From: Sphingobium sp.
GTDB taxonomy: Bacteria > Pseudomonadota > Alphaproteobacteria > Sphingomonadales > Sphingomonadaceae
DNA length: 64,000 nucleotides
Reading direction: 5' to 3'
Assembly: GCA_965279415.1 (NCBI GenBank)
Contig: OZ257238.1
Span: 502,925-566,924 of the forward strand
The position numbers were made by a program, and so were the translations under genes. This document shows positions 11,413 through 64,000 of the stretch, piece after piece; positions within the stretch are counted from its first letter, which is position 1; every line of letters starts with the position of its first letter. Below the pieces are notes generated by a model. The model was given only the letters and a program-made list of their open reading frames with translations. It was not told where the DNA came from and ran no database searches.

Positions 11413-11852
11413 TCGATATCGGCGCTCTGGACAGTCATTGGCTGTGGCTCATCCTCGCGGTGCTGTTCGGCATCGGCGAGATCGTCATTCCGGGCATATT
11501 CCTGTTCTGGATCGCGATCGCCGCCGCGCTGACCGCGGGCGTGACGATCGTGACCGGCATCGCCCTGCCCGCGCAGATCATCGTTTTCGCCGTGCTGTGC
11601 CTGATCGCGACCTATGCCGGCAAACGCTGGTATCGCGACAATCCGGTCGAATCGCAGGATCCCTTGCTCAACGATCGCGGCGCGCGACTGGTGGGTGAGA
11701 TCGTCACCGTGGTGGAGGCCATCCGCGGCGGACAGGGCCGCGTCAAGCTGGGCGACGGCGTATGGCCATGCCGCGGACCCGATGCTGCGGACGGTGCCCT
11801 GATGCGCGTTACCGGCGTAACCGGCAACGCGCTGATCGTGGAAGTGGTATGA
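11409..11852 (+). CDS. NfeD-family membrane protein
   Basis: The start overlaps the SPFH stop (ATGA). It has TM helices followed by a C-terminal OB-like beta domain (GEIVTVVEAIRGGQGRVKLGDGVWPCRG). The SPFH-NfeD pairing is classical. Confidence 0.85.
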   Translation: MIDIGALDSHWLWLILAVLFGIGEIVIPGIFLFWIAIAAALTAGVTIVTGIALPAQIIVFAVLCLIATYAGKRWYRDNPVESQDPLLNDRGARLVGEIVTVVEAIRGGQGRVKLGDGVWPCRGPDAADGALMRVTGVTGNALIVEVV

Positions 11853-12071
11853 TCCAAACGCCCATCGCGACGCGCGTTCGTAAGCGGTAAAGTTGCGGAA
11901 GTTGCGGCGTAAACAGCCGCAGAAATCCGACGATGTTGCTTCTGACCGCCTGTAAGCGGGCCGATAAAACCGAAACTGGGATTTGAACAAAGGGTATGTT
12001 CGGACGACATGTCCGCTCACTAACCCATCTGGTTATAATTTGCAAGCCTCCGCGAGACGACGCCGAACCGA

Positions 12072-12389
12072 TCAGCCGAACAGACCCTTGGCCAAGCCGC
12101 TCAGATCGTTGACGGGGCTGCCGTCGCCGTCGCGGTCGAACAGGCTACCCAGCTTGCCCATGATCGCTTCGGGACCACCGGCCTGCCCCATCAATTCCTG
12201 CAACTTGTCGGCCGACACGCCATGCGCGGCTGCGGTTTCGGCAAGCGCGGCGACGCTGGTCTTGCCCGATCCGATGTCGGCGGCGATCTGCTGCATCAAC
12301 GGGCCGATCGATTCCGCAGGCAGGCCCAGCTTGGTCGCCAGCGCGTCGAGATCGCCCATATTGCCCAATATGCCGTCGAAAATGCCCAT
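12072..12389 (-). CDS. Small hypothetical protein (105 aa)
   Basis: Start at MGIFDGILGN. It has host-like codon bias and a DRDGDGS EF-hand-like stretch. No family was recognised. Confidence 0.5.
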   Translation of the reverse strand: MGIFDGILGNMGDLDALATKLGLPAESIGPLMQQIAADIGSGKTSVAALAETAAAHGVSADKLQELMGQAGGPEAIMGKLGSLFDRDGDGSPVNDLSGLAKGLFG

Positions 12390-12509
12390 GATCGTCCTCC
12401 GCACGTGATGGAGGCACCATAGCAGCTTTGCCGCGGCACGGGCAAAAAAATGGGGCCGGACGTGCGTGCGTCCGGCCCTCCTCTCCTGGATCGTATCGTG
12501 AAGCGCGGA

Positions 12510-14105
12510 TCAGGCCGCGGTCAGCGCGGCTTCCCGCACGGACGCGTCGACATGGCTTTCGAACTGCGCGAAATTGTCCACGAACTGCTTCACCAGCTTC
12601 GCGGCGGTGTCGTCATAGTCGGCGCCGTCGGCCCAGGTCTGGCGCGGGTCGAGGATCTTGGAATCGACGCCCGGCACCGCGACCGGCACTTCGAACCCGA
12701 AATTGGGATCGGTGCGGAAGGCGACGGCGTTGAGGCTGCCGTCGAGCGCGGCGTTCAGCAACGCGCGGGTGATGCGGATCGGCATCCGGCTGCCCACGCC
12801 ATGCTTGCCGCCGGTCCAGCCGGTGTTGACCAGCCAGCAGGTGACGCCGCCCTTGGCGATGCGTTCCTTGAGCAAATTGCCGTAGACCGAAGGATGACGC
12901 GGCATGAAGGGCGCGCCGAAGCATGTGGAGAAGGTCGCCGTCGGCTCCGTCACGCCGATTTCGGTGCCCGCGACGCGCGCGGTATAGCCCGAAAGGAAAT
13001 GATACATCGCCTGTTCCGGCGTCAGCCGCGCGATCGGCGGCAGGACGCCATAGGCATCCGCCGTCAGGAAGATGATGTTGCGCGGCACGGGGCCGAGATT
13101 GTCGGCGCTGGCATTGGGGATGAAGTCGATCGGATAGGAACCACGGCTGTTTTCGGCGAGGCTGTTGTCGTTGAAGTCCAGTTCGCGCGTTTCCGGGTCC
13201 ATCACCACATTTTCCAGCACCGTGCCGAACCGCTTGGTGGTCGCGAAGATTTCCGGTTCCGCTTCGGGCGAAAGATTGATCATCTTGGCGTAGCAGCCGC
13301 CTTCGAAATTGAACACGGCGGTGTCCGACCAGCCATGTTCGTCGTCACCAATCAGGGTGCGGCTGGCGTCGGCGGACAGCGTGGTCTTGCCGGTGCCGGA
13401 CAGGCCGAAGAACACGGCGGTGTCACCGTCCGGTCCGATATTCGCCGAACAGTGCATCGGCATCACGCCCTTGGCCGGGAGGAGATAGTTGAGGATGCCG
13501 AACACCGACTTCTTCATTTCGCCGGCATATTTCGTGCCGCCGATCAGGATCAGCTTTTCGGTGAAGTTGACCGCGATCACGGTTTCGCTGCGGCTGCCGT
13601 GGCGCGCGGGATCGGCGCGGAAGCTGGGCAGGTTGATGATCGTATATTCGGGCGTGAACCCAGCCAGTTCCTCCGCCGTGGGGCGGACGAGCAAGGTGCG
13701 GATGAACAGGTTGTGCCAGGCCAGTTCATTGATGACGCGGACATTGGCGCGATATTCGGGCTGCGATCCGCCGAACAGGTCGGCGACGTAGAGCTTGTCC
13801 TTGTCGGCCAGCGCCGCGAAGAAATCGGCCTTGAGCGCGGCGAAATGGTCCGGCGTCATGGGGACGTTGGTGCTGCCCCACCAGACGGTGTTTTCCGTCT
13901 CGGCATCGCGCACGATGAACTTGTCCTTGGCGGAGCGGCCGGTGTGCGTGCCGGTCTTGACGACCAGGGGGCCATCCTTCGCCAGCATGCCTTCGCCATT
14001 GGCCAGCGCGGCCTCGACCAGCGGCGCCGTGCCGAGATTCCAATATTGTTCGGCACGGGAAGTGATGCCCTGGTCCGCTAGGGTGAATGAGGATGTCGCC
14101 TGCAC
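12510..14105 (-). CDS. pckA: Phosphoenolpyruvate carboxykinase (ATP)
   Basis: GTG start with AGGAG 7 nt upstream, the kinase-1a motif [13 protein letters not shown], and the PckA-typical [12 protein letters not shown] and IGDDEHGW. Confidence 0.95.
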
Positions 14106-14381
14106 GCGCTTGCTCCTAAACTGTTATGGTCGGCCTGAAAGGCCGAGGACACGGGTTGCGGGGATCGTTTTTCGTCCCTGATGCTCCGCACTGCGAATCC
14201 GCATAAGCCTTTGCCCCATGGGCGTCAAATCGGCGCGGTCGCCTGATCCGATACAGGACAACGGGCTGCCCGGATTCCAGGGCCTGGCCTTAACATATGT
14301 TTCGTATCGAGCGACTTTCTTGCTCCCTGCCCCGCCATCGTCTAGGCCTGCCGACGTGTTTACCCATCTGGACCGCGGAAG

Positions 14382-15086
14382 ATGAGCGCAACCATTGCGT
14401 TGGTCGATGACGACCGCAACATTTTGACGTCCGTTTCCATAGCGCTTCAGGCCGAAGGCTTCATCACGCGGCTCTATTCGGATTCGGAAGCGGCGCTCAA
14501 GGCGCTGATGGACAATCCGGCGGACCTGGCGGTTTTCGATATCAAGATGCCGAAGATGGACGGCATCGAGCTGCTCCGCCGCCTGCGCGAGAAAAGCGCG
14601 ATGCCCGTCATCTTCCTGACCAGCAAGACCGACGAGCTGGACGAGGCGCTGGGACTGGCCATGGGGGCGGACGACTATATCTCCAAGCCGTTCTCGCAAC
14701 GGCTGCTGATCGCGCGGATCAAGGCGATCCTGCGCCGTGCGGAGTTCGCCCGCCCCTCCACCGACGCCGGCGAACAGGCCGCCGAACCGATCGTGCGCGG
14801 ACGGCTCGAAATGGACCCGGCGCGGCATCGGGTGAAATGGAAGGGCCATGACGTGACGTTGACCGTCACCGAGTTCCTGATTCTCGAAACGCTGGCCACG
14901 CGGCCCGGCGTGGTGAAAAGCCGCAACCAGTTGATGGACGCCGCCTATCAGGACGACGTCTATGTCGACGACCGCACCATCGACAGTCACATCAAGCGGC
15001 TCCGCCGCAAGTTTCGCGAGGCAGACCCCGATTTCAACGCAATCGACACGCTCTATGGCGCCGGATACCGATTCTCGGAAGAATGA
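14382..15086 (+). CDS. chvI: OmpR-family response regulator ChvI
   Basis: A receiver domain (LVDDD...DIKMPKMDG...SKPF) plus a winged-helix output domain (YGAGYRF). It is divergent from pckA and followed by chvG/hprK, the conserved alphaproteobacterial arrangement. Confidence 0.85.
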
Positions 15087-53441: not shown

Positions 53442-53526
53442 TACATCCGATTAGGACGGAAAAGCCAATTTATCGTTAATGGATACAATAACGGAATATT
53501 TACCATGTTCGGCGATCAAGCGGAAC

Positions 53527-54405
53527 ATGACTTCACTTCGCTTTCTCGCCGGGCCGATTATCGCGGCCCTTGGCCTCATGGCCGCGCCTGCCTCCGCCGA
53601 ACCGCTGCGCAACGGGGGCAAGCTGCTGCTCACCAATGGCATCACCTCGATCGAAGGCGCATCGGGCGGCGGCCTGACCCCATGGGCGACGATCGCAGGC
53701 AACGAGACGCGCGACGGCATCGGCGCGTCAGGCCACGCCACGATCATCGAACTGAAGGATTACGACTATCGGAGCGCGGGCGTCAGCATCGGCCTGTTCG
53801 ATCGGGTCGAACTGTCATGGGCGCGGCAGGATTTCAACACCAACGAGATCGGCGGCGCGCTGGGGCTGGGCAACGACTATGCCTTCGGTCAGGACATCTT
53901 CGGCGCGAAAGTGAAGCTGATCGGCGATCTGGTCTATGATGCACCGCTGCTTCCCGCGATCGCCATCGGCGCGCAATACAAGAAAAGCCGCAATGCCGAC
54001 GTGGTCCGCCTGCTCGGCGCGACCGACGACGACGGCATCGATTATTATGTGTCCGCGACCAAGCTGTTCCTTGCGCGCAGCATCCTCGTCAACGCCACCG
54101 CGCGCCTGACGAAGGCGAACCAGAACGGGCTGCTCGGCTTCGGCGGCGACCGGCAGGACGATTATACCGTGCAGTTCGAAGGCTCGCTCGGCTGGCAATT
54201 GTCGCGCCGCCTCGCCATCGGCGGCGAATATCGCACCAAGCCGAATAACCTCGGCGTCGCGAAGGAGGACGACTGGTTCGACGCCTTCGCCGCCTATGCC
54301 GTCAATCGCCATCTGACCGCGACGCTCGCCTACACCGATCTCGGTTCGATCGCGACGGTCGACAAGCAGCGCGGCGTATTGTTCTCGCTTCAGGCCGCCT
54401 TCTGA
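53527..54405 (+). CDS. DUF3034-family exported protein
   Basis: ATG 53527 and signal peptide ...LMAAPASA. It has IEGASGGGLTPWATIAG and a beta-rich body ending ...FSLQAAF. Confidence 0.65.
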   Translation: MTSLRFLAGPIIAALGLMAAPASAEPLRNGGKLLLTNGITSIEGASGGGLTPWATIAGNETRDGIGASGHATIIELKDYDYRSAGVSIGLFDRVELSWARQDFNTNEIGGALGLGNDYAFGQDIFGAKVKLIGDLVYDAPLLPAIAIGAQYKKSRNADVVRLLGATDDDGIDYYVSATKLFLARSILVNATARLTKANQNGLLGFGGDRQDDYTVQFEGSLGWQLSRRLAIGGEYRTKPNNLGVAKEDDWFDAFAAYAVNRHLTATLAYTDLGSIATVDKQRGVLFSLQAAF

Positions 54406-54422
54406 TCTTCAGGACCCCCATC

Positions 54423-54953
54423 ATGTCCCTTCTCGCCTTCGCTCCCTTGCTTCTGCTTCAGGCCGCAACCGATGCGCCTGCCCCGCCGCCGCCTCTCCCG
54501 CCGCCGCCTGTCGCTGCGCCTTATGCGGTGCCGGGCGAGGATGCCGTCGATCCCTATGTCGCCGACAATGCCAATGCCGGCGCCACGCCGTTCCGCGGCA
54601 CCGGCATGGCCGACGCCTTCCACGGCAGGGAAGGCATCCAGCGGATCGTCGACGGTTTCGTGACGCGCAATTATGCCGACCCGGTGATCGGCGAAATCTT
54701 CGAAGGCCACGACAAGATACGCCTGCGCCGGACGCTGTTCGAGCAGTTCTGCTACATATTGAACGCCGGATGCGCCTATACCGGCCGCGACATGCAATCC
54801 TCGCACAAGGATCTGGGTACGCAGCATGGCGACATGAACCGGCTGGTCGAAAATCTGCAAAAGGCGATGGCGGAGGAAGGCGTGTCCTTCCCGGCGCAGA
54901 ACCGCTTCCTCGCGAAGCTGGCGCCGATGCGCAGGAATACCGTAGATCGCTGA
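54423..54953 (+). CDS. Group-1 truncated haemoglobin (TrHbN-like) with N-terminal signal / Pro-rich extension
   Basis: The globin core is GREGIQRIVDGFVTRNYADPVIGEIF...AGCAYTGRDMQSSHKDLGT..GDMNRLVENLQKAMAEEGV. Confidence 0.7.
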   Translation: MSLLAFAPLLLLQAATDAPAPPPPLPPPPVAAPYAVPGEDAVDPYVADNANAGATPFRGTGMADAFHGREGIQRIVDGFVTRNYADPVIGEIFEGHDKIRLRRTLFEQFCYILNAGCAYTGRDMQSSHKDLGTQHGDMNRLVENLQKAMAEEGVSFPAQNRFLAKLAPMRRNTVDR

Positions 54954-54998
54954 ACCATAATCCGTGCCGTTATTGATGGTTATGGCGGCGTATAGCTT

Positions 54999-55135
54999 CT
55001 TGTTCCCCGGCGAAGGCCCGGGGTCCAGGGCAACAAGGATGTACTGTGCGACTCTGGACCCCCGCCTTCGCAAGACCTCTGCAAAAAGGGGAATAAGATA
55101 AAAGTCGTCGTCATTCCCGCGAAGGCGGGGGGGTA
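54999..55135. repeat. Three copies of the small CCCGCGAAGGCGGGGGTCCAG-type hairpin repeat
   Basis: The copies are TTCCCCGGCGAAGGCCCGGGGTCCAG, the inverted CTGGACCCCCGCCTTCGCAAG, and TCATTCCCGCGAAGGCGGGGGGG. They belong to the same family as 32268..32353. Confidence 0.6.
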
Positions 55136-55186
55136 TAGTGATAGATGGAATTATGCACGTCGCTGACCACACTAGCACTAACAGCC

Positions 55187-55720
55187 TTATGATGGACCGA
55201 CTTGTTCGCCATCGAGAAAGATGCGCCTGCCTTCCGGGCATTTGACATAAGAGAACCGCTTACCCTGATCATTAAAGGTGAGTGTATCGGCGGTTAGCTT
55301 GACGATTGGAAAGCGATTGACCTGACGAAGCGTAGTCACAGCAGGGGGAGCATCCGCATCTGCCGTTTCGTCCAGTTCATATTTCGATGTGGTGTCGCGT
55401 ACCAAAGTGGCATCTGTGATTTCCCACCGCCCTTCAACACCGCTAAACTCGTCACCTTCGGAAAACCTGCCGCTTGCGCTGTAAACCGCGCCATAGCCAG
55501 TGCCGCAACCGCCATCAACGGGTGCCCAAACACCAACAATCTTTGATGCCTCATCGGGGACATTTGGGCTGCTGCTGGTAACATGGCTGGATACAGCATT
55601 ATTCGCTTGAATAGCCAAATTCGGATTGCTGTTAATTTCCTGTCCGGCGTAGTAACCCGCTCCGGCAAGGGAAACCGCAAGCATAAATCCACCGATGCCA
55701 TATAGAAAGGGCTTACTCAT
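55187..55720 (-). CDS. Hypothetical membrane-anchored protein (177 aa)
   Basis: N-terminal TM helix (LYGIGGFMLAVSLAGAGYYAG). AT-rich codon usage. No family recognised. Confidence 0.5.
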   Translation of the reverse strand: MSKPFLYGIGGFMLAVSLAGAGYYAGQEINSNPNLAIQANNAVSSHVTSSSPNVPDEASKIVGVWAPVDGGCGTGYGAVYSASGRFSEGDEFSGVEGRWEITDATLVRDTTSKYELDETADADAPPAVTTLRQVNRFPIVKLTADTLTFNDQGKRFSYVKCPEGRRIFLDGEQVGPS

Positions 55721-55741: not shown

Positions 55742-56332
55742 TCAGAATTTCACTTTGCTTTCTGCCGCTGCCCGTCCCGGTTTATTCACTTTGTCCTCGT
55801 CCGTCCAAAGAACGCGGAAATCCAGAAGCGTCATTTCGAGGGACTTTGCACCTCCGTTATCCATGACCATTGCCGTCATCCACATAGTCCGGAAGGGATT
55901 GGCCTCGCCTTCGGGTGTGCGTACCTGTTCGATCAATTCCCATTCGTAAACACTGGCAGTGGTGCGGGCAGGAACGCCATATTTCGCAGATAGCTTATTG
56001 GCGAGTGTCGAACGAAAAGCATCATCTAAGGCAAATTGCCCAAGCTGCTGGCTGGACTGGATGCGATAAATGCGGCCAAGCGGCGTCACTTCAAAGTTGA
56101 AGTGCAACCCATCGCGCTCCGTTTCAAACTGGTATCCGCCAACAGATGTGATTGTCGATAGCTTCGCTGCCTCTCTAATAGGCATCCCCAACGCAAAACC
56201 GCCAATCTCACGCGATTTCGTTGCCGAAGCTATGGCGGGAGAATGCGTCGGCTGTCCTGTCGCTTCACCATATCCTAATGGCAATGCAAGAACGGAAACG
56301 GCCAATGCCGCTACGGCCAGATGCTTCTGCAT
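55742..56332 (-). CDS. Hypothetical secreted protein (196 aa)
   Basis: Signal peptide MQKHLAVAALAVSVLALPLG. No family recognised. Confidence 0.5.
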   Translation of the reverse strand: MQKHLAVAALAVSVLALPLGYGEATGQPTHSPAIASATKSREIGGFALGMPIREAAKLSTITSVGGYQFETERDGLHFNFEVTPLGRIYRIQSSQQLGQFALDDAFRSTLANKLSAKYGVPARTTASVYEWELIEQVRTPEGEANPFRTMWMTAMVMDNGGAKSLEMTLLDFRVLWTDEDKVNKPGRAAAESKVKF

Positions 56333-56424
56333 AAGGAATTATTCTCCATCAATTTCAGTAATCAGCTTTAATATGATGGATATAGGCAGTGGTTTAATGA
56401 CCGCTTAATTGGCGCTCTACGATC

Positions 56425-56694
56425 ATGCGTGGGCGTGATCTTGTCGGTAAAAATGTGCGGCGCATACGCGTTGCGCAGAATGTCTCGCAAGAACGCCTGG
56501 CTTTCGATGCTGGCGTGGATCGGTCCTATCTTGGCGGATTGGAACGGGGCGAGGAAAATCCCACAATAGATTTGCTTGAACGACTGGCAGCGACATTGAC
56601 CGTTCAGCTTCAAGAGCTTTTCATTGAGGTGCCGGATGACGATGCGTCATCGGGACTGCCGCGTGGTCGTAAAAAGGGCGGGCGTCCCGCTTGA
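56425..56694 (+). CDS. XRE-family helix-turn-helix transcriptional regulator
   Basis: The HTH_3 pattern is VGKNVRRIRVAQNVSQERLAFDAGVDRSYLGGLERGEENPTIDLLERLA. Its 3' end overlaps the convergent cas1-like 3' end by 48 nt. Confidence 0.8.
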   Translation: MRGRDLVGKNVRRIRVAQNVSQERLAFDAGVDRSYLGGLERGEENPTIDLLERLAATLTVQLQELFIEVPDDDASSGLPRGRKKGGRPA

Positions 56695-57771
56695 CTGTGG
56701 CGCGACGATTGCAGCGATCATTCTCGCCAATTGGGGTGATAGCCTGCAAACGCCATCGCTACGCAGAATGAAATCTGCGCCCGAAAATCTCTGGCTGCGT
56801 ATGAAAGCCAATATTGCCCGATCTACCAAAGGCCGTTCCGGTTCAATCTGATCGAAGATATAGGCAGGCAAGCCGCGTCGCCCGCTGTGCATCACGCCGA
56901 TTGTCGGATCATAGCCATCGGCAATCGCGGCAATCTGCAACTGTGCCTGTTTTACGGCATAGGCATAATTGAGCATTGCGTTGATGGGATGGGACGCATT
57001 GACGTTTTTGGGTTTCAGACCATTGGCGAGGGACGGACGACCTTCATAGTCTCCCCATGCCGGGGAGATCGGATAGCGTCCGGTGGATTTCCAGTTCAAA
57101 CGCAATCCGGCCCAGACGCCAAAATAGGCGCTGGCACAACTCGCTTCGATACCGCGCAATTGTTTGAGGTCAGCGGGCGGATTGCTGCTAAAGTCCGCAA
57201 TGGCGTTCTGCAATTTCTCTACAGCCCGTTGCCGCCGTTCGCTTGGTTCAAACGCAACTTCCAACGTATCTATGCAGTGGGCAAATTTGGTTCTGATAAG
57301 ATCGACTGAATAGGCCAATTGCGCAGCCCGGTCTTGCCCGGTTTCCATTTGCCAGAATATCTTTTCCCGGTCCCCGATAGTGCCGCTGCTACTTGCGACG
57401 GTAGCCACATCGCCGGTCCAGCTTATGCGGGCCAAGGCAACATTCTGTTCCGCCAGCCATGACAGCACATCGAACGACAAGGTGCCGCTGCCGTCCAGCA
57501 ACAGGATGCGAGGCGGTAGTGCAAGGTCGCCGCGAAAATAGCGATGTAGGGATTGCGTCTGCGGATGATGCGTAAACCCGTCACGAATAACGAGTGCGCC
57601 CTTTTCGATCCGCATCGAAACGCCATTGCCGCACAGGATCAAAGGGGTTGAATTGCGTTCGCGGCGTTTCCGCTTGGCGGGCAATTTTGCCAGTTCGGAA
57701 ATCCAGTTTTCCGACCGGATGGCCCATTCGTCGGTCGCTGCAACCTTGGAAAAATTGTCCAGTGTTTTCAT
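56647..57771 (-). CDS. cas1: Cas1-family integrase homologue (stand-alone, casposase-like)
   Basis: The N-terminal beta domain is GVSMRIEKGALVIRDG...LLLDGSGTLSFDVLSWLAEQNVALARISWTG. The catalytic-type motifs are LRGIEASCASAYF, ASHPINAMLNYAYAV and YIFDQIEPERPLVD. Start at ATG 57771; GTG 57792 is an alternative. Confidence 0.8.
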   Translation of the reverse strand: MKTLDNFSKVAATDEWAIRSENWISELAKLPAKRKRRERNSTPLILCGNGVSMRIEKGALVIRDGFTHHPQTQSLHRYFRGDLALPPRILLLDGSGTLSFDVLSWLAEQNVALARISWTGDVATVASSSGTIGDREKIFWQMETGQDRAAQLAYSVDLIRTKFAHCIDTLEVAFEPSERRQRAVEKLQNAIADFSSNPPADLKQLRGIEASCASAYFGVWAGLRLNWKSTGRYPISPAWGDYEGRPSLANGLKPKNVNASHPINAMLNYAYAVKQAQLQIAAIADGYDPTIGVMHSGRRGLPAYIFDQIEPERPLVDRAILAFIRSQRFSGADFILRSDGVCRLSPQLARMIAAIVAPQSSGTPALFTTTRQSR

Positions 57772-57837
57772 GTTCTCGACATAACAGATCACACGCGGAA
57801 TATCGCCGGTAAATCAGTGAATGTTCGATCATTAACC

Positions 57838-58761
57838 CTAAATTTCCGGGCATTTAACGCCCCGCCTAATGGCTAAAATACACTGTACGAATCGCATAGC
57901 TGGCCATGGACCCGTCGAAGTTTGTTTTGCCACAGAGTTTTGCATTTCCAGCATGGCACGAAGCGGGTTTGCTACATCCAAATCCGCGATATCCAGGCGC
58001 TCTGTCATCTGCGCTAATTGCCGCGGCATTCGCCCAATTCGGTAATTTAGCGCCCGTGCAATTCTAAACTCTCGCTGCGACGCATTTTTGATTTCGCTTT
58101 CGGCAGAGTCCTCAATTTCATCTTCGGTTCCCATGACGCCGGACCATAGGTTTGCGAGTCCTTCGATGCTGGCGCTGAATAGGGAAAGGTCGATACCGGG
58201 CAATATCTGTTCAGCCGCACTTTGCAAAAGTGTCGCGTTTTGATCGACGGCTGTTGCCTTTCCCTTGTGTGCCAATTCCGCGAAGGTTGCGTAGAAAGCA
58301 TCGGATTGCTGGAATGGCGTATCTATGAATCGGCTATCAAGCCGTCCAATTTGCGTCCGAATGGCTCGCTTTTGGGTTTGGCCCAAATCTGCGTAATTTT
58401 TATTGTCCATGTATGTTGTTCGACGATGCACCAATTGCGCCCGCCACTTGCCCAATTCTTTGACCAACGCTTCCCTCACACGATCAAAGTCAGAATGACC
58501 CCATTCAAGATATGCTTGCACGATCAGTTCATGTTGCCTGCGGACACCCCTCTTACGCAGTTCGGCTAATCGCATTGCCCTCCTCAATGAGGTTTCGGTT
58601 CGCGACCACTCCGGTCCCTTCCCATATACGCGCCCGATCGCTTTAGCTTTAGGTAAAATATCCCATGCCACCCATTGCCGAATGACATGGATGGTAAGTG
58701 CATCCGGTCCGGATAGTCCGGCCTTTTCATTGAGCAAGGCCGCAAATTCGCTGTTCGTCAT
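57838..58761 (-). CDS. Hypothetical protein (307 aa), first gene of the cas1 operon
   Basis: A clean ORF with the same strand as cas1, ending 66 nt upstream of it. No motif recognised. Confidence 0.55.
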   Translation of the reverse strand: MTNSEFAALLNEKAGLSGPDALTIHVIRQWVAWDILPKAKAIGRVYGKGPEWSRTETSLRRAMRLAELRKRGVRRQHELIVQAYLEWGHSDFDRVREALVKELGKWRAQLVHRRTTYMDNKNYADLGQTQKRAIRTQIGRLDSRFIDTPFQQSDAFYATFAELAHKGKATAVDQNATLLQSAAEQILPGIDLSLFSASIEGLANLWSGVMGTEDEIEDSAESEIKNASQREFRIARALNYRIGRMPRQLAQMTERLDIADLDVANPLRAMLEMQNSVAKQTSTGPWPAMRFVQCILAIRRGVKCPEI

Positions 58762-58844: not shown

Positions 58845-59414
58845 ATGGCACGCAAAAGAGACCATCGCCGGGAATATCAACGCCGCTTGGCCAATGCCGA
58901 AAAGCGCGGCCTAACCCGTTCGCAGGCTCGCGGCCATGCGAAGGCAGGCGAAAAGCCTGTTGGCAAACCTTCGACAAGGGACATGGGCAAGTTTGAAGCG
59001 GCCCTAAAAATCTACCGTCAGTCCGGCAATCGTGGTGCTGCGGCTAAGGCGATGGGCATTGCGCCGGAACGGTTCAGCCGGTTGCTAGCGGATACCGTGC
59101 AAGTATCGGGGCGCGGCAAATCGCTCAAAATCATCGACAACCGCCCTCGCGAAATGGCCGTCATCACCGATGGTCAAATGCGCCGGATCATCCTGCGCGA
59201 TTACGATCAGGCAGCGATCAATGGCGAGTATCTCAATGCCGCCAAAGCCTTTCTGGCATCCAACGATGACGAGGTGCTGCATCCCTTTGCAGGCCGATCA
59301 ATCGTGGACGCCAAGGGCAAAGCGCACCTCCTCGAAACCGACCCCAACATTTTACACCGGATTGCAGGGTCAGACGATCCGGCATTCCTCGAAATCTATC
59401 GCATTGTTCAGTGA
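58845..59414 (+). CDS. Hypothetical protein (189 aa) with basic N-terminus, first gene of the HNH-polB operon
   Basis: ATG 58845. It has the basic segment RKRDHRREYQRRLANAEKRGLTRSQARGH and a possible HTH (NRGAAAKAMGIAPERFSRLL). Confidence 0.55.
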   Translation: MARKRDHRREYQRRLANAEKRGLTRSQARGHAKAGEKPVGKPSTRDMGKFEAALKIYRQSGNRGAAAKAMGIAPERFSRLLADTVQVSGRGKSLKIIDNRPREMAVITDGQMRRIILRDYDQAAINGEYLNAAKAFLASNDDEVLHPFAGRSIVDAKGKAHLLETDPNILHRIAGSDDPAFLEIYRIVQ

Positions 59415-59427
59415 AAGGAGAAGCAAT

Positions 59428-59793
59428 ATGAATACGTTAGAATTGCGGAAAGAGTCTCGCAGGCAAGGCCGATTGGAACGGCTTGGCACTAATGATCCAA
59501 ATTGCGGCCTGTGTGGCGAGCATGATGACCGTTGCTTGGAACTGCATCATGTGGCCGACTATCGGCGCGATGACGGCACGGTAGTTATATGCCGGAACTG
59601 CCATCGTAAGGTGAGCGACGATCAGAAGGATCATCCCCGCTTTGATCCCGCTGCCGACCCGATGCTGGATCGTATCGGCCATTTCCTGTTGGGCTTGGCA
59701 GACCTGCTGCGCCTCATCGTCGAGAAGCTGATGGTCTTTGGTCATTGTCTGATCGAACGCGCCGCGCCCTCCAGCAAGGGAGAGGTGGCATGA
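59428..59793 (+). CDS. HNH endonuclease
   Basis: ATG 59428 with SD AAAGGAGA. The motif is CGLCGE...LELHHV...VVICRNCHRKV (CxxC..HH..CxxCH zinc/HNH pattern). Confidence 0.75.
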   Translation: MNTLELRKESRRQGRLERLGTNDPNCGLCGEHDDRCLELHHVADYRRDDGTVVICRNCHRKVSDDQKDHPRFDPAADPMLDRIGHFLLGLADLLRLIVEKLMVFGHCLIERAAPSSKGEVA

Positions 59794-62700
59794 CATATAT
59801 CCCGCCGATCACCGATCATCTGGCCGTCGCGATCCGGGCATTTACCGGACCACAGTTCACGGTCCTTGCTGATCCAAATGATAATAAACCCAAGTCGAAA
59901 AAAGCGATAGCGCCAGCGTCAGACTGGACGCTCGTTTTCGATACCGAGACGACAGCCGATGCCGCCCAAGCATTGCGGTTCGGCACCTATCAGTTTCGCA
60001 ATAAGGATGCGTTGGAAGAGGCAGGCATATTCTATGATCCCGATGGCGTGACCCCAACGGAACTGGAATGCCTGACAGCCTACGCCGATACCCATGGCCT
60101 ATGCCTGCGAACGCGGCAGAGTTTCGTGGACGATGTATTCTTTGCCCGCGCCTATCAACTTCGGGCAACGATTATCGGCTTCAATCTGCCCTTCGACATT
60201 TCGCGCCTCGCCGTCAGCCACGGAACGGCACGAACGCCGATTGCGGATGAGACGGGCACCTTGCGCGGCGGCTTCACCTTCAAGCTGTCGGAACAGAAAA
60301 TCTATCCCAACATTCGCGTCAAACATATGTCGCGGCGGGCGGCGCTGATTTCCTTTGCCGCCACGATGGGACAGCGTGACAGTCGCGGCCAACGCAACCG
60401 GGGCTTCAAAAGCCCGGTTCGGCGCGGCCATTTCATCGACGTAAAAACATTGGCCGGGGCGCTCTTTGCGCGCAGTTTCTCGCTGGCCAGCCTGTGCCGC
60501 TTTCTCAACGTCGAGCATCCCAAGCTGGACTTTGAGGATTTCGCAGCGCCGATCAGCGATGACATGATCCGCTATGCCGTTGCAGACGTGCAGGCGACAT
60601 GGGAATGCTACCGGGCAGCGCTGGCGCGTTTCGATCAGCTTGGTTTGCGCCAAGCCAAGCCCGAAAAAATCTACAGCGAAGCCAGCATCGGCAAAGCCTA
60701 TATCAAGGCGATGGGCATTCAGCCTTGGCGCACGATGCAACCGGATTTCCCACGCGATGTGCTGGCCAAGATCATGGGCAGCTATTTCGGCGGACGTTCG
60801 GAAGTTCGCATTCGTCGGGAAATGCGGCAAGTCATGCTCTGCGATTTCCTGTCCATGTATCCGACCGTCTGCACGTTGATGGGGCTTTGGCGCTTCGTCA
60901 TTGCTACGGGGATGACATGGCGAGATTCTACCGACGAAACCCGCTCGTTTCTGGACAGCATCGACTTGGCGACGTTGCAATCGCAGGATGTCTGGCAACA
61001 TCTGACTACGCTTGTTCGGGTGCTATCTGATTGGGACATTTTCCCTGTTCGTGCCGACTATGCGGAAAAGGGGCAGAACACGATTGGCGCAAATGCCCTG
61101 ACATCGGATACGCCATTGTGGTTCACTCTGGCGGATTGCATCGCATCCAAATTGCTGACGGGCAAGACGCCCCAAGTCATAGAAACGATCAGCTTCACGC
61201 CGGGGTCGCTGCAACCCAATCTTGAAGCCATCAATATCAGTGGCAATCCGGCCTATCGCGTCGATCCGAACGAAACGGATTTCTTCAAGCGCGTCATCGA
61301 ATTGCGTCAGACAATCAAACAAAAGCGCGATGCTGCTGATCCACAAGAACGCGATGTGCTGGACATCGAACAGAACGCCCTCAAAATTGCGGCCAATGCG
61401 ACCAGCTACGGCATATGGGTGGAAGTGAATGTTGATGTCCGGCCCACGCCATCCTCCGTGACGGTGCATAGTTCTACTTGTGATCCGTTCAGTTTCCAGA
61501 CCGACAAGCGGGAAAATCCCGGCACCTATTTTCATCCCTTGCTGGCCACGCTGATAACCGGCGCTGCTCGGTTGATGCTAGCGATCACCGAACGGCTTGT
61601 GACCGACGCAGGGCTGGATTGGACCTTTTGCGATACGGACAGCATGGCGATGGCCAAGCCCGACACGATGTCACCAGACGAGTTTGCGGAAAAAGCCAAT
61701 GCTGTCGTTACGTGGTTTGCGGCGCTCAATCCTTATGCGTTCGATGCGTCGATCCTGAAAATCGAGGATGTGAACTATGCCCTCGCATCGAACGAACCTG
61801 AACCGCTTTACTGTTGGGCCATTTCGTCCAAGCGATATGCGCTGTTCAATCTGGACGCCAATGGGCAACCCATCATGCGCAAGGTATCTGCGCATGGCTT
61901 GGGGCATTATCTGCCGCCCTATGACGATGCCGACGCGCCACCGGATTTTCCGGTGCCTGACAAGTCCGTCCTGAAAGATGGCACGTTACGCTGGCATTGC
62001 GACCTGTGGCATCAAATCGTCACCGCTGCGATAGCCGGGTATCCCGATCAGGTGGCACGAAACTATCATCCGGCGATGAGCCAACCGGCGCGCAGTCGTT
62101 ATGCCGCGACCTCTCCGGACCTGTTGCGATGGTTCAAATCCTACAACGTCAATCGGTCTTATCGCGATCAGGTCAAGCCCTTCGGCTTCATGCTGGCGTT
62201 TAGCGAACAGCAGAATCATGCAGCGGAAAGTGTCGTTACCTCGGCAAAGAAGGGGAGGCCAAAAAAGGCTACCGCGATCAAGCCGATTGCACCCTTCGAG
62301 AGGGACAGCGCGAAAGCCGCTGCAATGGCTTTTGATCGGGTGACGGGAAAAGCTGTTCCAGCTTCAAGCCTGCGCACTTATGCCGATGCGCTTTTCCAAT
62401 ATCATATCTCGCCAGAAGCCAAATTCCTGAATGGCGATTATCTGGACAAGGGCATCACGCAGCGGCGGCATGTGTATATGGCAAACGTCCACCACATCGG
62501 GAAGGAGGCGCATGATTGGGAGCGCCACGCCATGCTGGGGACAAGTGCCGATGGTGAAATCAGCTATGGCAATCGAACCAACATAATCGGGGCAGTGTCA
62601 GCACTGATCGTGGAATTTGGCCATGTGCCAACAGCCAAAGCGTTTGGGGTGTCATCACGGCAATTAACGGCGGCAGTGCGTGATGCGCCTGAAAGCGGCA

Positions 62701-62897
62701 AAAGTCGTATTGCGTCCAGTCTGACGGTCAGGCTTCCCAAGGTCGTCAAGACATTGCGGCAAGCGGCGGCGGCTAAACGAAAGGAAGTGCGGCACCTTCG
62801 TGCTTTGGTTGATAACTATGGGTTGCGGGAAGCTGCTCGCCAAGAGGGATTAGACCCGTCAAATCTGAGGCGTAGGATTGCGCAAAGAAAGCTGTGA
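59790..62897 (+). CDS. polB: Family-B DNA polymerase with 3'-5' exonuclease domain
   Basis: The start overlaps the HNH stop (ATGA). ExoI is VFDTET (59937..59954), ExoII GFNLPFDISRL, ExoIII YAVADVQ. Pol motif A is DFLSMYPT (60842..60865), B is KIAANATSYG (61383..61412), C is FCDTDSM (61626..61646), and KxY is SSKRYALF. Confidence 0.85.
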   Translation: MTYIPPITDHLAVAIRAFTGPQFTVLADPNDNKPKSKKAIAPASDWTLVFDTETTADAAQALRFGTYQFRNKDALEEAGIFYDPDGVTPTELECLTAYADTHGLCLRTRQSFVDDVFFARAYQLRATIIGFNLPFDISRLAVSHGTARTPIADETGTLRGGFTFKLSEQKIYPNIRVKHMSRRAALISFAATMGQRDSRGQRNRGFKSPVRRGHFIDVKTLAGALFARSFSLASLCRFLNVEHPKLDFEDFAAPISDDMIRYAVADVQATWECYRAALARFDQLGLRQAKPEKIYSEASIGKAYIKAMGIQPWRTMQPDFPRDVLAKIMGSYFGGRSEVRIRREMRQVMLCDFLSMYPTVCTLMGLWRFVIATGMTWRDSTDETRSFLDSIDLATLQSQDVWQHLTTLVRVLSDWDIFPVRADYAEKGQNTIGANALTSDTPLWFTLADCIASKLLTGKTPQVIETISFTPGSLQPNLEAINISGNPAYRVDPNETDFFKRVIELRQTIKQKRDAADPQERDVLDIEQNALKIAANATSYGIWVEVNVDVRPTPSSVTVHSSTCDPFSFQTDKRENPGTYFHPLLATLITGAARLMLAITERLVTDAGLDWTFCDTDSMAMAKPDTMSPDEFAEKANAVVTWFAALNPYAFDASILKIEDVNYALASNEPEPLYCWAISSKRYALFNLDANGQPIMRKVSAHGLGHYLPPYDDADAPPDFPVPDKSVLKDGTLRWHCDLWHQIVTAAIAGYPDQVARNYHPAMSQPARSRYAATSPDLLRWFKSYNVNRSYRDQVKPFGFMLAFSEQQNHAAESVVTSAKKGRPKKATAIKPIAPFERDSAKAAAMAFDRVTGKAVPASSLRTYADALFQYHISPEAKFLNGDYLDKGITQRRHVYMANVHHIGKEAHDWERHAMLGTSADGEISYGNRTNIIGAVSALIVEFGHVPTAKAFGVSSRQLTAAVRDAPESGKSRIASSLTVRLPKVVKTLRQAAAAKRKEVRHLRALVDNYGLREAARQEGLDPSNLRRRIAQRKL

Positions 62898-63067: not shown

Positions 63068-63844
63068 ATGGCAGATTTTTTACGGTTGTTGGCCGGTCAC
63101 ATCACCCGTCGAACCTATGCAGTAGGGGTTATGCTTCTGATCTCCAGTTGTGGCCAAGCGAGTGGGCAGAATTATCCGCCGTACCGCTATCGCCTCACCG
63201 TGGAAGTGGACACGCCGTCGGGTCTGCGGACTGGATCGAGTGTTATTGAGGTTCGTACTTTCGTTGCTGGGAAAAACGCTATTCCCAGTCCGGGTCAAGT
63301 GTTCCATCGTGTGACCGGAGAGGCTGTTGCTGTTGATCTGCCGGGCAATCAGAGGCTCTTTGCCTTGCTGCGTTCGGAAGAATCCTATGACTGGGCCTCC
63401 GGGGTTTTGGCGGCGCAGACAGAGCCTATTACAGTCAAGGAAACGCTCAGGATGCGGAAAGAGGGTAAAGACCCTTTTGACGAAAGGATGCGCCGCACGC
63501 TTACTTTGACCGGCGTGCATGTACTGCCCCGTTGGCAGCGTCCCTCCAAAGTCAAGGCACAAAATATGCACCGTATCAGCGGCTATCCTATTCTTGCCAG
63601 GTTTCGTGATATTCGCGATCCAAAGACAGTTGGGCTGGTTGATCCTGATAATCTTGACGTGAGTTTCGGGCAAGGCGTGTCGCTTCGGCGAATTACTGTC
63701 GAACGAACACAAGCCGCCGTGACAAAGAGCATTGACAGAAAGTTGCCTAGCTTTGGCCCAGAAACAGGCTTTAGCACTTGGCTAAAAAAATTGCCGTTCA
63801 GTGATGAACGCAGGCAAATAGTTGATAGCTTTAGGCGGAGATAA
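63068..63844 (+). CDS. Hypothetical lipoprotein (258 aa)
   Basis: ATG 63068 and the lipobox-like MLLISSCGQ. AT-rich. No family recognised. Confidence 0.5.
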   Translation: MADFLRLLAGHITRRTYAVGVMLLISSCGQASGQNYPPYRYRLTVEVDTPSGLRTGSSVIEVRTFVAGKNAIPSPGQVFHRVTGEAVAVDLPGNQRLFALLRSEESYDWASGVLAAQTEPITVKETLRMRKEGKDPFDERMRRTLTLTGVHVLPRWQRPSKVKAQNMHRISGYPILARFRDIRDPKTVGLVDPDNLDVSFGQGVSLRRITVERTQAAVTKSIDRKLPSFGPETGFSTWLKKLPFSDERRQIVDSFRRR

Positions 63845-63848
63845 AAAC

Positions 63849-64000
63849 ATGAACGACAATGTCATGCGAGCAATTCTCGCAATGGATTCTTATAACCGTA
63901 GCTATGGACAAGGAATAAACGGAATATCCGACTCTTCGATGGTTGGGAATGCATCTGTAATAAAAGATTCAAGCATATTTGAAATTGATGATCAAAGAAT
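63849..64000 (+). CDS. Hypothetical protein, N-terminal 50 aa only (continues beyond window)
   Basis: ATG 63849 lies 2 nt after the upstream stop codon. The frame is open to the window end (MNDNVMRAILAMDSYNRSYGQGING...) and very AT-rich. Confidence 0.4.
   Translation, partial: MNDNVMRAILAMDSYNRSYGQGINGISDSSMVGNASVIKDSSIFEIDDQR

Follow-up and report, generated by a model that had tools for sequence, protein, structure and literature searches.

What does a gene for a Cas1 homologue belong to when it lies in an alphaproteobacterial chromosome with no CRISPR-like tandem array anywhere in the surrounding 64 kb? This question is raised by a 64,000-nucleotide stretch of a Sphingobium-like chromosome (hereafter, the window), in which an initial annotation had noted a stand-alone Cas1 gene with an apparently intact active site and had taken it for an integrase rather than a decaying CRISPR remnant. 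Casposons, a known kind of self-replicating transposon, have been put forward as forerunners of the machinery for CRISPR adaptation. Biochemical work has been confined to families 1 and 2, and the literature that we searched names about eight bacterial elements of family 3.

Here, we report a comparative analysis of this locus and its relatives. The ORF is, in all likelihood, the casposase of a family 3 casposon that begins at position 55130 and runs past position 64000. The window thereby adds an apparently intact family 3 element, with one end seen, and a sister strain seemingly without the insertion. We further describe the size of family 3 and the association of its members with GC-rich palindromes, both of which go beyond the literature searched.

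The Cas1 gene and its closest structural relatives

The gene (56647-57771, minus strand) encodes 374 amino acids from an ATG start; a GTG at 57792, in frame with the ORF, would give 381 amino acids, the form held in the protein database (P0001). The product carries a conserved basic N-terminal extension and matches the Pfam Cas_Cas1 family (PF01867) over residues 93-352 (E=2.3e-29; 102.9 bits against a cutoff of 22.3). It also passes the general NCBIfam Cas1 model, TIGR00287 (84.6 bits; cutoff 71.7), and scores far under the cutoff of every subtype-specific NCBIfam Cas1 model. An AlphaFold (AF2) model computed with 22 homologues as input (mean pLDDT 78.5, pTM 0.78) comprises an N-terminal beta domain (residues ~44-126) and a C-terminal helical domain (135-359), with nothing beyond residue ~359; the profile match ends at about residue 353 of 374, so that no room is used by a C-terminal HTH. 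By Pfam, NCBIfam and predicted fold, this is a genuine, intact Cas1-type integrase gene, and the initial description of a Cas1 homologue with the Cas1 two-domain layout and no fused C-terminal HTH is confirmed.

The initial annotation had further proposed a structural comparison with Cas1 structures and a comparison with casposases. A Foldseek search with the model yielded 128 PDB matches at E<=0.001, the best 50 of which are all casposase or Cas1 chains. The best fold match, ahead of all CRISPR Cas1 structures, is 6OPM, the casposase of Methanosarcina mazei (E=7e-18, TM 0.66/0.72). The same structure is the best PDB relative by sequence, with E-values of 2.2e-16 for the single sequence and 9.8e-27 for the family profile, and the pointer to casposases was thus the right lead. 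The closest Cas1 in the database is only ~70% identical to that of the window.

The catalytic triad

The active site of 6OPM consists of E162, H232 and E247 (PMC6977970). We paired residues by counting along HMMER alignments, with the deposited chain numbering of 6OPM at +17. In these alignments, E162 corresponds to E209 of the window protein (RGIE), H232 to H295 (IGVMH) and E247 to E310 (DQIEP). E209, H295, D307 and E310 are invariant among 22 homologues with 52-69% identity. The putative metal-binding triad E209/H295/E310 is intact, as judged from these alignments, and the motif of the catalytic histidine is IGVMHSG.

The three peptides in which the catalytic residues had originally been placed are all present in the protein, LRGIEAS at residues 205-211, SHPINAMLNYAY at 260-271 and FDQIEPERPLVD at 306-317. 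Two of the three assignments, the glutamate (E209) and the acidic residue (E310), agree with the 6OPM alignment. The third does not: the histidine of SHPINAM (H261) is the wrong residue because it lies opposite an aspartate in 6OPM and is nearly, not fully, invariant among the 22 homologues, and H295 takes its place. The active site is thus intact as claimed, judging from the homologues and 6OPM, but through H295 and not through the histidine originally proposed.

Core genes and cargo of the element

The Cas1 gene proved to be anything but stand-alone, as genes for a DNA polymerase, an HNH endonuclease and HTH proteins lie within 5 kb of it, together with a recognisable end of an element with terminal inverted repeats (TIRs). 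The separate XRE gene that had been noted at its 3' end is indeed there: a regulator of the XRE/Cro-C1 HTH type (56425..56694, plus strand, 89 amino acids; Pfam HTH_3 2e-13; PADLOC 'control protein' 3.9e-16) faces Cas1 in convergent orientation, with an overlap of 48 nt at the Cas1 3' end. An XRE gene is adjacent and convergent to Cas1 in about 18 related loci.

On the other side of Cas1, upstream and co-directional with it, lies a gene for a 307-amino-acid protein, p307 (57838..58761, minus strand), an accessory protein that evolves fast and has an HTH-like signature at its N-terminus. Its homologues, found with jackhmmer, occupy the same position in 25 loci, with a mean identity of 25% in the alignment; the matches to characterised folds are restricted to armadillo repeats and are insignificant (E ~0.2). 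Tentatively, p307 may correspond to the HTH-HEAT protein that family 2 casposons encode. It is followed by the gene for a conserved core protein of 189 amino acids, p200 (58845..59414, plus strand), with a conserved RGLSRSQARGH motif, which is found between Cas1 and HNH in nearly all related loci. Residues 48-97 of p200 give weak profile matches to small HTH and KorA-domain proteins, and on these matches it is probably an HTH DNA-binding protein.

The HNH endonuclease gene (59428..59793, plus strand, 121 amino acids) was identified by a PHROG HNH match (5e-5) and by Pfam HNH matches in 7 of 21 family members. The CxxC...H...CxxC pattern is invariant in the family, and a histidine after the second pair is nearly so. 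The HNH stop codon overlaps the start codon of the next gene (ATGA), which encodes a family B DNA polymerase (PolB; 59790..62897, plus strand, 1035 amino acids from ATG) with an intact 3'-5' exonuclease domain. The polymerase matches Pfam DNA_pol_B at the gathering cutoff (3.8e-5), the PHROG DNA polymerase (6.6e-8) and PADLOC DEDDh (7e-6). Against the PDB, it gave no match as a single sequence and marginal matches to archaeal PolB only as a profile. Motifs Exo I-III and Pol A/B/C (FDTET, NLPFD, YxxxD, DFLSMYP, KxxxNxxxYG and CDTD) do not vary among 20 homologues and are all found in the window's polymerase.

The remaining genes are cargo. Just inside the TIR boundary, an ORF for 177 amino acids (55187..55720, minus strand) begins with a hydrophobic, signal-like segment; the adjoining ORF for 196 amino acids (55742..56332, minus strand) has a signal-peptide-like N-terminus, and its homologues occur at the equivalent site, just past XRE and Cas1, in five related loci (L006, L024, L028, L044 and L047). 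Beyond PolB follow a putative lipoprotein gene (63068..63844, plus strand, open from 62894) with a lipobox-like LISSCG, which is not kept in related loci, and the 5' part of a further ORF (63849..64000, plus strand) that is cut at the window end. None of the first three ORFs matched a family in Pfam, PHROGs or PADLOC. No RNA family was detected by Rfam between 54 and 64 kb, and no tyrosine or serine recombinase or other transposase was matched among the ORFs of the element in Pfam, NCBIfam, PHROGs or PADLOC. Among the nine element ORFs scanned, PADLOC and Pfam detected neither cas2 nor any Cas protein besides Cas1. With an intact triad, no array in 64 kb and no cas2, the locus has the appearance of a working integrase gene rather than of a decaying CRISPR remnant, as initially argued.

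Relatives and assignment to family 3

Scanning one genome per species with a profile, we identified 213 confirmed Cas1 loci, nearly all in Alphaproteobacteria (Sphingomonadales, Hyphomonadaceae including Henriciella and Hyphomonas, Rhodobacterales, Caulobacterales and Rhodospirillales), and 80 of these loci were fetched for comparison. The named relatives are all bacterial and mostly alphaproteobacterial; none at E<=1e-30 is plasmid-borne. In tblastn searches with the window's proteins as queries, 66 of the 80 loci showed the window's order of Cas1, p200, HNH and PolB, and Cas1 and PolB were kept together in 67. Among the 14 exceptions to the synteny, 12 are cut by contig ends, one (L074) has no detectable HNH, and one (L032) is without the module despite 10 kb of upstream sequence. 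The cargo varies across related loci and the core is constant.

This gene set is that of a casposon, and the bacterial casposons make up family 3, with named members that include those of Hyphomonas sp. CY54-11-8, Henriciella marina and the sphingomonad Citromicrobium bathyomarinum (PMC4046053, PMC4779613). Our set contains the Hyphomonas CY54-11-8 contig (L072), which carries the ParB/RepB genes and the serine recombinase published for HypCY54-C1 (PMC4779613) and also an ABC-3C system. The Cas1 of this element is 43% identical to that of the window over 345 residues (E=3e-106), the catalytic motifs align, and PolB, p200 and HNH are syntenic with the window's. The assignment to family 3 was made because of this homology and synteny with one verified published member. 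At E<=1e-30, the Cas1 family comprises ~210 clusters at 50% identity; with 213 loci, family 3 is much larger than the literature searched suggests.

Termini and target-site duplications

Inverted-repeat searches found significant TIRs that bracket the module in complete relatives, with both ends present in 26. The terminus of these elements reads GGGGTATAG(T)GAT, and 51-53 of the 53 ends contain GGGG and TATAG. In sphingomonad elements, there is in addition a TGACCACAC box in subterminal position. The spacing between the two TIR boxes varies, and a search with fixed spacing found none. The terminus resembles published TIRs of families 2 and 3, namely GGGATATAGG of MetMaz-C1, GGGTTATAGG of MetMah-C1 and GGGGTATG of NitAL212-C1, and the complementary strand, with its ...CTATACCCC-3' end, is similar to the TATATCCC-3' end in the 6OPM casposase crystal.

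Directly outside each terminus of the relatives lies a GC-rich palindrome. In 25 of the 26 elements, the copies at the two ends, read on one strand, form a perfect direct repeat, 14-23 nt in length (median 18). As an inverted repeat, they match less well, with 1-13 mismatches over 20 nt, owing to the asymmetry of the loops. Perfect as a direct repeat and imperfect as an inverted one, the palindrome is therefore a target-site duplication (TSD) and not part of the TIR. The published annotation of HenMar-C1 places the hairpin inside a 37-bp TIR and gives a 1-nt TSD; the hairpin as TSD would revise the published end annotation of at least this one family 3 element. A general reading of the hairpins as terminators was rejected, since flanking A/T tracts occur at only ~5 of 26 targets, and REP-like is the better description for the sphingomonad hairpins.

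The window contains the Cas1-proximal end of such an element. The TIR (55130..55172, plus strand) consists of a terminal box GGGGTATAGTGATAG at 55130-55144 and a subterminal box TGACCACAC at 55164-55172, so that the whole end (55116-55172) reads CCCGCGAAGGCGGG, then GGGGTATAGTGATAG...TGACCACAC. It matches the GGGGTATAG end of the family consensus exactly. The only exact copy of the core terminal 13-mer in the window lies at 55131-55143 (0.22 occurrences expected with up to two mismatches), and GC content falls from ~63% to ~53% at this terminus, with the shift at ~55000.

Neither inverted-repeat BLAST nor a search with the terminal motif found a PolB-side terminus in the window. One pair of segments, 56347-56372 and 63967-63990, was considered as TIRs; the match was weak (E=0.4), and the pair was dropped after reading of the sequences and with the true motif found only at 55131. 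Complete relatives are 8.9-14.8 kb long and their PolB-side end lies 2-4 kb past PolB, so that no such end is to be expected before position 64000. Past this position, the predicted order would be ...GTGTGGTCA...CTATCACTATACCCC, then CCCGCGAAGGCGGG, then host DNA resembling AACCC.

The host hairpin and a sister strain

The 14-nt GC-rich palindrome CCCGCGAAGGCGGG (55116..55129) abuts the element, and its left copy alone lies within the window. It is predicted to be both the integration target and the left copy of the TSD. The identical 14-mer is perfectly duplicated at both ends of three related elements (L002, L003 and L073), in the same orientation relative to the element.

In the host flank, a gene at 53479-54405 encodes a protein with a DUF3034 domain. 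Its counterpart in Sphingobium algorifonticola shares 88% identity, and a closer match, at 98%, is encoded on a 3.7-kb contig of a different sample (L081). This contig follows the window across a globin gene and the intergenic DNA (87% identity), and the match runs as far as the final hairpin base. There, the two diverge, with AACCC on the contig and GGGGT in the window. This point of divergence places the putative boundary of the element at 55129/55130 and suggests a sister strain without the insertion, a comparison limited to the 5 nt of the contig that remain past the hairpin. The apparent absence of the insertion from this strain argues for acquisition after the strains split. The S. algorifonticola locus (L082) was considered as an empty site and set aside; the gene order is kept, and the locus is uninformative because its intergenic DNA is unrelated. 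A search of metagenome contigs for empty sites of the Ruegeria element (L071) and of the window's own junction gave no match.

Alternative explanations

The alternative that survives best is that the locus is an immobilised or domesticated casposon remnant, in which Cas1 is intact and the other end or the mobility has been lost, leaving a fixed island that possibly serves the host. The single terminus visible in the window would fit such an island, as would the ~70% identity of the nearest database Cas1, which gives no sign of recent multiplication, and inactive casposons devoid of TIRs have been published from Methanococcoides burtonii (PMC4779613). However, all four core genes are full length with intact catalytic motifs, the visible terminus does not depart from the family consensus, and the sister strain, with its 98% identical flanking protein, is apparently without the insertion. 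The PolB-side end of complete relatives lies 2-4 kb past PolB, a distance at which its absence from the window is expected. We consider a remnant unlikely.

Much less probable is a solo Cas1 of a system other than a transposon, for example in a defence island, next to a polymerase gene that merely adjoins it. The uncharacterised genes in the cargo, the ABC-3C system of the related Hyphomonas element and the resemblance of the XRE protein to controller proteins of restriction-modification systems could be read in this way, but in 25-26 relatives the whole module is bracketed by TIRs and TSDs, the cargo is variable against a constant core, and the element ends are similar to those of proven casposons. 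A degraded CRISPR-Cas adaptation module, with Cas1 left behind by Cas2, array and effectors, is scarcely credible: NCBIfam, PADLOC and the database homologues carry the name 'CRISPR-associated endonuclease Cas1', but the 64 kb contain no array, the element has neither cas2 nor a further cas gene, the PolB and HNH neighbourhood is kept in 66 of 80 loci, the closest relative by structure and sequence is a casposase, and the protein falls far under all subtype-specific cutoffs. Against these last two readings stand the conserved PolB/HNH context, the TIRs with their TSDs and the best matches to casposases, which together all but exclude them and leave the family 3 casposon as the preferred reading.

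A proposed mechanism of integration

No biochemistry of a family 3 casposase was found in the literature searched, and the mechanism proposed here is therefore transferred from family 2, with the integration chemistry that of the casposases of Aciduliprofundum boonei and M. mazei (PMC6977970, PMC5137440). A casposase oligomer would bind both ends of the element, the transferred strands of which would terminate in ...CTATACCCC-3'. The 3'-OH groups of these ends would attack the target, one strand at each edge of a GC-rich palindrome of ~14-19 bp, and gap repair would then duplicate the palindrome as the TSD. The element would be copied by its own PolB. By conjecture, the HNH nuclease probably takes part in end processing and excision, the small HTH proteins p200 and p307 probably in DNA recognition, and the convergent XRE protein probably acts as a regulator of expression.

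A report of hairpin targeting by casposons was not found in the literature searched. It is conceivable, and we offer it as a tentative proposal, that alphaproteobacterial family 3 casposases specifically select short GC-rich extragenic palindromes (REP- or terminator-like, CCCC-N8-11-GGGG) and duplicate the whole palindrome. If so, every insertion would create a unit of the form 'palindromic repeat - insert - palindromic repeat'. Should the casposase itself read the palindrome, this would provide a testable model for the origin of palindromic CRISPR repeats from casposon target sites. Insertion at, and duplication of, such palindromes is, with the size of family 3, the part of this work that extends the literature searched. 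The element ends (...GTGATAGC-style TIR, CTATACCCC-3'), the target sequences and the triad residues are concrete substrates for the first biochemistry of a bacterial casposase.

Comparison with known systems

Polintons/Mavericks resemble casposons in being bounded by TIRs and encoding their own family B DNA polymerase (PMC4046053). They differ from the element in the window in their retroviral-type integrase, protein-primed polymerase, eukaryotic hosts and capsid genes. The Cas1 of the CRISPR Cas1-Cas2 complex has a homologous fold with the same active-site residues, and its chemistry is of the kind proposed here, a staggered attack by 3'-OH groups at two positions with duplication of the sequence between them. 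In contrast to CRISPR adaptation, the locus in the window has no Cas2, array or leader, and the unit concerned is an element of ~10 kb rather than a spacer of ~30 bp.

Family 2 casposons, such as those of M. mazei (6OPM) and A. boonei, share with the window the Cas1 fold, the E/H/E triad and the HNH and PolB partners. Their TIRs likewise start with GGGnTATAG, which gives a transferred strand ending in TATAnCCC-3', and a near-invariant GGGGTATAG terminus is thus common to family 3 and to archaeal family 2. The size of the TSD is also similar, 14-15 bp in family 2 and 14-23 bp in the family 3 relatives. The differences are in the host, archaeal in family 2 and bacterial here, with ~22% sequence identity; in the C-terminal HTH, present in the family 2 casposase and absent from that of the window; and in the targets, which in family 2 are tRNA genes (at the 3' end) or CGCA-containing sites and here are GC-rich palindromes.

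The closest likeness is to the published members of family 3 (HypCY54-C1, HenMar-C1/C2 and CitBat-C1), which share with the window an alphaproteobacterial host, an intergenic insertion and a core of Cas1, a conserved HTH protein, HNH and a PolB of the RNA-primed type in the same order (PMC4046053, PMC4779613). The Cas1 of HenMar-C1, like that of the window, has no fused HTH or zinc-binding domain. Compared with HypCY54-C1, Cas1 is 43%, PolB 43% and p200 40% identical, and both elements have the GGGGTATAG terminus; the cargo differs, with small secreted proteins or lipoproteins and XRE in the window and ParB/RepB, a serine recombinase and ABC-3C in HypCY54-C1. The remaining difference is one of annotation, in that HenMar-C1 was published with the hairpin in its TIR, whereas our analysis of 26 elements identifies it as the TSD.

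Palindromes beside the insertion site

Of the palindromes clustered beside the insertion site, the casposon occupies only the third, the hairpin at 55116-55129. Between the globin gene and this hairpin lie a GC-rich, palindrome-like CCCCGGCGAAGGCCCGGGG (approximately 55004-55022) and a half-copy, CCCCGCCTTCGC, in the opposite orientation (approximately 55061-55072), both of which are empty. Both are also retained in the sister-strain contig (L081) and are therefore host DNA; together, the palindromes at 55004-55072 look like a REP-like cluster. Related loci in other genomes contain inverted pairs of the same 14-mer as the occupied hairpin, CCCGCCTTCGCGGG, at 14372-14443 and 17762-17855 in L028 and at 13061-13103 in L043. 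These pairs lie away from casposon ends, and their arrangement is that of REP/BIME-type repeats. The inverted pairs suggest that potential casposon targets are numerous in each genome.

Related casposons and their cargo

Over 60 nt, the terminal inverted repeats (TIRs) of related elements are identical in L071, from Ruegeria, and in L059 (60/60 each), and nearly so in L056 (56/60) and L078 (55/60), with perfect target-site duplications in all four. This combination suggests that the insertions are recent, in Ruegeria atlantica as well as in metagenome-assembled genomes (MAGs) of Rhodobacteraceae, Rhodospirillaceae and Bryobacterales, and makes these elements good candidates in the search for active bacterial casposons.

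Between the TIRs of the published casposon HypCY54-C1, from Hyphomonas sp. CY54-11-8 (L072), lies an ABC-3C system of three genes (DUF3732 ATPase, MC3 and CTD7; 11695-15067), which the consulted passages of the 2016 casposon paper (PMC4779613) do not mention. The presence of ABC-3C inside this element would make a conflict or defense system a casposon cargo.

The sole locus with 10 kb of sequence upstream of Cas1 and yet without detectable p200 (the conserved 189-aa core protein), HNH nuclease or family B DNA polymerase (PolB) is L032, from a Hyphomicrobiales MAG. Its Cas1 may be a truly solo, or a rearranged, copy of the window casposase's family. Outside the window, the source genome probably encodes another Cas1 of this family (P0012), 68% identical to the window casposase, and would thus harbor two distinct family 3 casposons.

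Gene organization of the window casposon

Within the window, p200, HNH, PolB and the next open reading frame (ORF) are closely spaced (59414-62897): 13 nt separate p200 from HNH, and start and stop codons overlap at HNH/PolB (ATGA) and PolB/next ORF (GTGA). This tight packing suggests that the four genes would form a single translationally coupled operon, divergent from the pair formed by cas1 and the gene for the 307-aa protein (p307). Over the final 500 nt (63500-64000), the GC content drops again, to about 45%, and a further cargo ORF, starting at 63849 (MNDNVMRAILAMDSYNRSYGQG...), continues past the window end. A 283-aa ORF (54390-55241, minus strand) runs across the edge of the casposon and shares sequence with the globin gene, which is encoded on the other strand; this ORF is almost certainly a spurious product of GC-rich sequence and is best left unannotated.

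The N-terminal extension of the casposase

At its N-terminus, the window Cas1 carries an extension particular to its family (residues 14-40), in which W16, W23, R34, R37 and R39 are invariant and which includes a KRKRRER patch; the extension precedes the region alignable to any solved Cas1, and model confidence there is low. Whereas the family 2 casposases carry a fused HTH, the window casposase has this basic extension, a candidate DNA-binding arm that may stand in for that domain.
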